Below the pieces are notes generated by a model. The model worked only from the letters and a program-made list of their open reading frames with translations, did no database searches and was not told where the DNA came from. The position numbers and the translations under genes are program-made. Below, piece by piece: positions 1,348-2,339 of a stretch of DNA of 4,218 nucleotides. The DNA lies in the sequence record FJ483843.1. One strand, 5' to 3'. Each line of letters starts with the position of its first letter. The stretch's first letter is position 1. The stretch is from Escherichia phage Qbeta.

Positions 1348-1746
1348 GCAAAATTAGAGACTGTTACTTTAAGTAACATCGGGAAAGATGGAAAACAAAC
1401 TCTGGTCCTCAATCCGCGTGGGGTAAATCCCACTAACGGTGTTGCCTCGCTTTCGGAAGCGGGTGCAGTTCCTGCATTGGAGAAGCGTGTTACCGTTTCG
1501 GTATCTCAGCCTTCCCGCAATCGTAAGAACTACAAGGTCCAGGTTAAAATCCAAAACCCGACCGCTTGTTCTGCAAACGGTTCTTGTGACCCATCCGTTA
1601 CTCGCCAGGCATATGCTGACGTGACCTTTTCGTTCACGCAGTATAGTACCGATGAGGAACGAGCTTTTGTTCGCACAGAGCTTGCTGCTCTGCTCGCTGG
1701 TCCTCTGCTGATCGATGCTATCGATCGACTGAATCCAGCATATTGA
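1345..1746 (+). CDS. cp: Major coat protein
   Basis: ATG at 1345, TGA at 1744-1746, 133 codons. Protein MAKLETVTLSNIGKDGKQTLVLNPRGVNPTNGVASLSEAGAVPALEKRVTVSVSQPSRNRKNYKVQVKIQNPTACSANGSCDPSVTRQAYADVTFSFTQYSTDEERAFVRTELAALLAGPLLIDAIDRLNPAY is near-identical to Qbeta coat as I recall it, including the two Cys that form inter-subunit disulfides. The TTG start at 1321 in the ORF track is an artefact. Confidence 0.97.
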   Translation: MAKLETVTLSNIGKDGKQTLVLNPRGVNPTNGVASLSEAGAVPALEKRVTVSVSQPSRNRKNYKVQVKIQNPTACSANGSCDPSVTRQAYADVTFSFTQYSTDEERAFVRTELAALLAGPLLIDAIDRLNPAY

Positions 1747-2334
1747 ACATTGCTCATTGCCGGTGGTGGCTCAGGGGAAAACCCCGATCCGGTTAATCCG
1801 GATCCACCGATTGATCCGCCGCCAGGGACAGGTACCTATACTTGTCCTTTCGCAATTTGGTCTCTAGAGGAGGTTTATGAACCTCCTACTAGTGACCGAC
1901 CGTGGCCTATCTATCATGCTGTTGAACTCCCGCCTCGCGATTTTGATGTTGCCCTCGATGATCTCTTGGGTAACACTGAATGGCGTGACTGGGATTCACG
2001 GCTCAGATATACCACGTTCCGCGGTTGCCGTGGCAACGGTTATATTGACCTTGATGCGACTTATCTCGCTACTGACCAAGCAATGCTTGATCAGAAGTAC
2101 GATATTCGCACAGGCAAAAGACCTGGTGCCTTCGGTAATATTGAACAATTTATTTATCTTAAGTCGATAAATGCATATTGTTCTCTTAGCGATATTGCGG
2201 CCTATCACGCCGATGGCGTAATAGTTGGCTTTTGGCGCGATCCATCTAGTGGTGGTGCCATACCGTTTGACTTCACGGAATTTGATAAGACTAAATGTCC
2301 GATTCAAGCCGTGATAGTCGTTCCTCGTGCTTAG
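1345..2334 (+). CDS. A1: A1 read-through protein (coat protein with C-terminal extension; minor capsid protein)
   Basis: Coat frame continues through the UGA at 1744-1746 to tandem stops TAG TAA at 2332-2337; 329 aa in total, as for Qbeta A1. The extension begins with a Gly/Pro-rich linker (GGGSGENPDPVNPDPPIDPPPGTG). The track ORF 1750..2334 is this extension with an artefactual TTG start. Confidence 0.9.
1744..1746 (+). promoter_or_regulatory. Leaky UGA stop codon of the coat gene (translational read-through site)
   Basis: A single TGA followed by A (TGA ACA) with the same reading frame open for a further 195 codons. Low-frequency read-through of this UGA (as Trp) is established Qbeta biology and produces A1. 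Confidence 0.85.
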
Positions 2335-2339
2335 TAACT

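Follow-up and report, generated by a model that had tools for sequence, protein, structure and literature searches.

Does the UGA that closes the coat gene of this RNA phage simply release the coat protein, or does it leak, such that a small share of ribosomes runs on into the longer protein A1, and what in the surrounding sequence would set and contain such a leak? The window, by which we mean the whole stretch of DNA that was analysed (4,218 bases), is the complete genome of a Qbeta-type ssRNA coliphage, a strain of Qubevirus durum. It matches 83 Qubevirus records; the closest in the phage collection is BR12 (FJ483842), with 95.7% identity from end to end, many other Qbeta records are about 92% identical, and the divergent M11 and MX1 stand at about 75% nucleotide identity. 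The closest stretch found was an IMG/VR contig, L015, with 96.7% identity over 1.6 kb. Pfam places the genes in the order Phage_mat-A, Levi_coat, Read-through and RNA_replicase_B, and the context is that of an RNA of about 4.2 kb carrying an A2 maturation/lysis gene, coat/A1 and the replicase beta subunit, without a separate lysis gene. All related records annotate two nested coding sequences from one AUG, the coat gene ending at UGA and a "read-through" or "A1" product ending at UAG; the coordinates of both in the relatives are those of the window, and the notes of several records describe read-through of the leaky coat stop. The sequence-only reading, which had proposed UGA read-through producing A1, correctly interpreted a feature that was known beforehand and that carries an annotation in each of the relatives. 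Elsewhere in the genome, the relatives have their annotated A2 start at 62; an in-frame ATG stands four codons upstream of that, at position 50, and the mechanically derived A2 frame accordingly has 424 amino acids against the 420 annotated. The elements of the coat/A1 locus described here lie on the + strand.

The major coat protein is encoded at 1345-1743 (ATG at 1345; 133 codons including Met), an assignment made from Pfam PF01819 (Levi_coat; E 1.8e-60, with a match over the full length) and from the annotation of BR12 and other relatives. This coding sequence supplies the coat protein and the N-terminal part of A1 alike, and its dN/dS against relatives is 0.03-0.17. Direct reading of bases 1741-1749 gives TAT TGA ACA, and the claim that the coat gene closes with a single UGA, flanked as UAU UGA ACA, proved exact to the base: the recoding site at 1744-1746, with A at +4, is the first in-frame stop after the ATG at 1345. 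We compared this site across 17 Qubevirus sequences, a set that includes the window and in which 14 GenBank records and three metagenome contigs are represented. The coat stop is a single in-frame UGA, preceded by UAY as the last codon of NPAY, in all 17, the independent metagenome contigs among them. At +4, the Q. durum lineage has A throughout and Q. faecium (SP, FI, HB-P22 and HB-P24) has G, whereas the +5 base is C in every sequence compared; since the SP/FI phages have UGA-G, A at +4 is not required genus-wide. The codons around the stop vary synonymously (GCA/GCG, UAU/UAC, ACA/ACG/ACU and UUG/CUG), and the local context that is invariant across the genus reduces to UAY UGA RCN only. A profile scan of IMG/VR and JGI metagenome contigs with the read-through domain, seeking distant relatives, returned no relatives beyond Qbeta-like and SP/FI-like sequences, and the comparison of stop contexts is thus confined to the genus.

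The A2 gene of the window likewise has UGA-A at its end (1322-1342), and its frame meets another stop five codons on, so that the UGA-A tetranucleotide by itself marks no dedicated signal. The coat UGA is set apart by the conserved 195-codon open reading frame behind it. As observations on A2 in its own right, an isoform extended C-terminally by a few codons, at a few percent, is conceivable from the UGA-A at 1322-1342, and in BZ1 and MX1 the A2 frame runs on into the coat gene for 140 codons.

Beyond the UGA the frame holds exactly 195 sense codons (1747-2331) before TAG at 2332-2334 and TAA at 2335-2337, as the sequence-only reading had it, with all of its coordinates correct. That this A1 extension is the read-through domain of A1, as claimed, is borne out by Pfam PF16814 ("Read-through domain"; E 8.2e-98 over extension residues 16-194), by the crystallized Qbeta A1 domain of PDB entries 3RLC/3RLK ("A1 protein"; E 6e-120 over residues 12-195) and by the annotation of the relatives; because the crystallized protein is 91% identical, the identity of the domain is settled. 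The extension opens with a Gly-rich linker of roughly 11 residues, TLLIAGGGSGE (about 1747-1779), and a Pro-rich stretch (about 1780-1830) lies between this linker and the globular read-through domain. Comparison with those nine relatives for which dS was measurable gave dN/dS values of 0.07-0.22 for the extension, close to those of the coat gene; the extension is therefore maintained as a translated protein under purifying selection. The expectation of coat-reactive species of 14 and roughly 36 kDa agrees with predicted masses of 14.14 kDa for the coat protein (132 amino acids, without Met) and 35.94 kDa for A1 (328 amino acids, with Trp at the UGA).

Two features of the extension in the relatives deserve mention. 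Positions 1789-1797 in the A1 linker are an indel hot spot, with one to three extra codons in HL4-9, FrSangria and FrMerlot, and M11 and MX1 differ in length on both sides of it; these indels indicate that the A1 linker tolerates length changes. One SP-like metagenome contig (L020, MAVO01000006.1; 91% identical to SP) carries a frameshift about 100 codons into the extension, at about 2180-2200, where it reads RRCRATGTST* as against RRCRGNGYIDLD. This is probably an assembly indel, a defective genome being a possible alternative.

The best explanation overall, to which we give a probability of about 0.97, is that the classic Qbeta leaky UGA operates between coat and A1 in this genome; none of the results obtained speaks against it. 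The sequence anatomy, the homology of the extension to a solved A1 domain, the purifying selection on it and the genus-wide UGA come from the present analysis, and Trp insertion, an efficiency of 3-7%, virion incorporation and essentiality come from published work on Qbeta. In that work the coat initiation codon is common to A1, which is made up of full-length coat protein and the extension, and UGA is constitutively misread by Trp-tRNA, with Trp misincorporated at the coat stop in about 3-7% of passages to yield A1. Each virion is reported to carry a few copies of A1 (about 10) with the extension facing outward, and A1 is reported to be essential for infectious particles (Hofstetter 1974, as cited in later papers); UGA followed by A is reported to be misread by tRNA-Trp with particular ease in E. 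coli (Engelberg-Kulka 1981, likewise as cited). Recent evolution experiments on A1 suggest a role in binding or entry.

Applied to the window, ribosomes translating the coat gene would reach the UGA at 1744-1746, where most would terminate via RF2 and release the 14-kDa coat protein, and in a few percent of passages ordinary Trp-tRNA would misread the stop, an event that the A at +4 would favor in E. coli. Translation would then continue in frame for 195 codons to give the 36-kDa A1, a coat protein joined through a flexible Gly/Pro linker to a globular domain. Such a protein would coassemble through its coat moiety, a few copies replacing coat subunits, and would display the extra domain on the capsid surface, where it would be needed for infectivity. 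The leak would in this way set a fixed, low ratio of A1 to coat protein from a single RNA, with no need for another promoter or ribosome-binding site. Trp insertion and its efficiency in this strain are extrapolated from Qbeta, the extension of which is 91% identical, and we infer what the A at +4 contributes here. The sequence-only reading had also described the read-through as being regulated; nothing in the sequence indicates regulation, and the process looks like a constitutive leak at a fixed ratio.

The alternative that survives best is that read-through is not purely a context-driven leak and is actively stimulated or tuned by a conserved RNA structure at 1760-1826, in the manner of the structure-dependent read-through of murine leukemia virus, alphaviruses or luteoviruses, a proposal that we regard as unlikely. 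A stable local structure is predicted there, beginning 16 nucleotides after the UGA, with a minimum free energy of -36.9 kcal/mol and a z score of -3.5; none of 200 shuffles folded as well, and the larger context gives a z score of -3.7. In the predicted fold, GGUGGUGG in the Gly codons pairs with CCGCCGCC in the Pro codons to form an outer helix, for which there are two possible registers, enclosing two small hairpins, GGGGAAAACCCC and GAUCCGGUUAAUCCGGAUC. The outer helix is retained in SP and FI with changes on both sides at three to four pairs, and synonymous variability at 1756-1810 is only 0.26-0.29 of expectation. These observations speak for the proposal, as does a 2026 review in which the downstream structure of Qbeta is entered as "not determined" ("ND"). 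However, the a priori test of synonymous sites in the 20 codons after the UGA gave a p value of about 0.07, which is not significant, and the controls for covariation were divided: the percentage of cells that are paired and the score for covariation exceeded those of shuffles, but the number of pairs changed on both sides did not, being reached by 229 of 500 shuffles. The covariation of the downstream structure is thus only partly above controls, at a level that we would call suggestive.

Position also counts against an action of this structure on the stop. The first 15 nucleotides after the UGA lie outside the stable helix, which begins at a longer spacing than would be expected for action on a UGA in the A site; given the footprint of the ribosome, a point about 16 nucleotides past an A-site stop is beyond the mRNA entry channel. 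Moreover, dense structure extends along the whole of Qbeta RNA, and the coat gene contains a synonymous dip of equal depth at 1405-1464. Leakage at UGA-A through normal tRNA-Trp, at a few percent, has been reported without special structure. The dip at 1405-1464, in the 5' third of the coat gene, is in fact the deepest in the coat/A1 open reading frame (0.24 of expectation) and suggests an overlapping RNA constraint unrelated to read-through. A weak minimum-free-energy hairpin that pairs the UGA with 1721-1725 was rejected as a signal, as it lacks covariation and is broken in SP and FI. Were the structure at 1760-1826 to act after all, it would tune efficiency, for example by slowing ribosomes or by shaping mRNA geometry, and so set the ratio of A1 to coat protein; Qbeta, the first read-through system ever described, would then be structure assisted rather than purely context driven.

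We consider it very unlikely that the extension is expressed as a separate protein from an internal start codon such as TTG 1750, or is reached by frameshifting. A mechanical list of open reading frames does contain a 194-amino-acid frame that starts at TTG 1750, but the sequence upstream of this codon, CCAGCAUAUUGAACA, has no purine-rich Shine-Dalgarno element, and the residues directly past the UGA are conserved as a linker continuing the coat C terminus. Internal initiation was rejected on the first of these grounds and because it contradicts the published architecture of A1, with its full-length coat moiety and shared coat initiation codon. Frameshifting is excluded, since the other frames are closed: the five alternative frames of 1747-2331 hold from 3 to 24 stops each, those at +1 and +2 having 6 and 24, and the domain can be encoded by frame 0 only.

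Less likely still is insertion of selenocysteine at the UGA, directed by a bacterial SECIS element. Structured RNA does follow an in-frame UGA here, but a SECIS hairpin would stand immediately 3' of the UGA and the structure found starts 16 nucleotides downstream; an Rfam scan of the whole window at E values up to 1 matched no curated family, SECIS or otherwise, and in published work on Qbeta the residue here is Trp. The notion that the frame past the stop is open by chance or through a sequencing error has nothing in its favor beyond the window being a single sequence, and we regard its likelihood as negligible in the face of the comparative data that refute it: frame 0 of 1747-2331 stays open in only 3 of 20,000 dinucleotide-preserving shuffles (median first stop at codon 16; composition-based expectation of an open frame, 1e-4), the extension has matches in both a curated domain family and a solved crystal structure and is under purifying selection, and the arrangement is present in 17 of 17 independent sequences. 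Leaky-UGA read-through of the coat gene into A1 accordingly stands as the preferred reading of this locus.

The far end of the extension is marked by the tandem terminators UAG UAA at 2332-2337, bases 2329-2340 reading GCT TAG TAA CTA on direct inspection. UAG UAA ends A1 in all 12 sequences of the Q. durum lineage, including M11 and MX1 despite their diverged flanks, whereas a single UAA ends it in all of the SP/FI-type (Q. faecium) genomes examined (SP, FI, HB-P22 and HB-P24). The sequence-only reading had presented a leaky stop followed by a double stop as a classic signature of read-through; this was an overstatement, given that UAG UAA is confined to the Q. durum lineage of Qbeta, M11 and MX1. 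The tandem stop may be of consequence in this genome because of what follows it. Coat/A1 (from 1345) and the replicase (from 2353) share one reading frame and codons 2338-2352 contain no stop, and UAG UAA is therefore the only barrier to a coat-A1-replicase fusion. The A1 stop is the only barrier before an in-frame replicase in all Q. durum genomes and also in FI, where it is a single UAA with no other stop between it and the replicase, but not in SP-type genomes, which have a further in-frame UAA two codons past the A1 stop. UAG UAA would end A1 firmly, and we infer a firewall role for the double stop in this lineage, in which UAA may serve as a second line behind UAG, a stop open to read-through in common amber-suppressor hosts; in FI, a single UAA suffices for the same barrier job.

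The intercistronic spacer through the replicase start (2338-2368), read directly from the sequence, is context and not part of the read-through signal. It contains a Shine-Dalgarno-like UAAGGA at 2339-2344, likewise read directly, and the replicase AUG at 2353, placed by the annotation of relatives. The start codon lies within a predicted hairpin, AUGCAUGUCUAAGACAGCAU, at 2349-2368, which folds as a bulged hairpin with a predicted energy of -6.4 to -6.6 kcal/mol and which we take to be identical to the Qbeta coat-protein operator.

A long-range RNA contact involving the A1 extension has also been published. Cryo-EM of Qbeta (PMC8880383) revealed a kissing loop between 1876-ACGA-1879 in the A1 extension, within hairpin RT4, and 2844-UCGU-2847 in the replicase gene, within hairpin R22. 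In the window the corresponding loops are AUGA (1877-1880) and UCAU (2845-2848), a C-to-U change with a G-to-A change that keeps all four pairs, and both hairpins are predicted to fold with the tetranucleotides in or at their loops. The AUGA/UCAU state is common to the window, BR12, BZ1 and M11; ACGA/UCGU is found in laboratory Qbeta, TW18 and FrSangria, and HL4-9 and FrMerlot have a change on one side only (UCGC). At the level of sequence comparison, the compensatory change to AUGA/UCAU is covariation support for the published long-range contact.

Set beside known systems, the locus is closest to that of laboratory Qbeta, with which it shares genome organization, the UAU UGA ACA context, the 195-codon extension and UAG UAA. 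The two differ at strain level only: the genomes are about 92% and the extension proteins about 91% identical, with 16 amino acid changes in the extension and a linker that reads GENPDPVNPD in the window and GSKPDPVIPD in laboratory Qbeta. Coat/A1 read-through in bacteriophage Qbeta was described by Weiner and Weber in 1971 and 1973 and by Hofstetter et al. in 1974, and the structure of the A1 domain (3RLC/3RLK) by Rumnieks and Tars in 2011. The divergent Q. durum phages M11 and MX1 also have UGA-A, a 195-codon extension, UAG UAA and a replicase in frame with coat/A1, but at about 75% nucleotide identity and 73-74% identity in the extension; their codons after the stop are ACU GCG as against ACA UUG in the window, which are synonymous and nonsynonymous differences. 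SP, FI and their kin in Q. faecium have a coat protein that ends NPAY-UGA and a homologous extension of 197-199 codons with 42-46% identity, but they differ in the G at +4, in the single UAA that ends A1 and, in SP-type genomes, in a replicase that is out of the A1 frame. Beyond phages, the luteovirus coat-protein read-through domain (CP-RTD), tobacco mosaic virus (TMV) replicase, murine leukemia virus (MuLV) gag-pol and alphavirus nsP4 likewise use a leaky stop to make an extended product at a fixed, low ratio, and the luteovirus product, too, is exposed on the particle as a minor component of the capsid. Those eukaryotic systems have other stop contexts and often defined downstream RNA structures, and their proteins are not homologous to A1; in contrast to eukaryotic viral read-through, no stimulatory structure is established for Qbeta, according to the 2026 review.

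In summary, Qbeta A1 is the founding example of natural stop-codon read-through, met again here in a slightly divergent strain. Its value in this setting is as a positive control, a genuine recoding site having been recognized from raw sequence with exact coordinates. To the established picture our analysis adds three refinements: the context conserved across the genus is only UAY UGA RCN, the double stop belongs to a single lineage, and within it nothing else keeps the A1 frame apart from the in-frame replicase gene.
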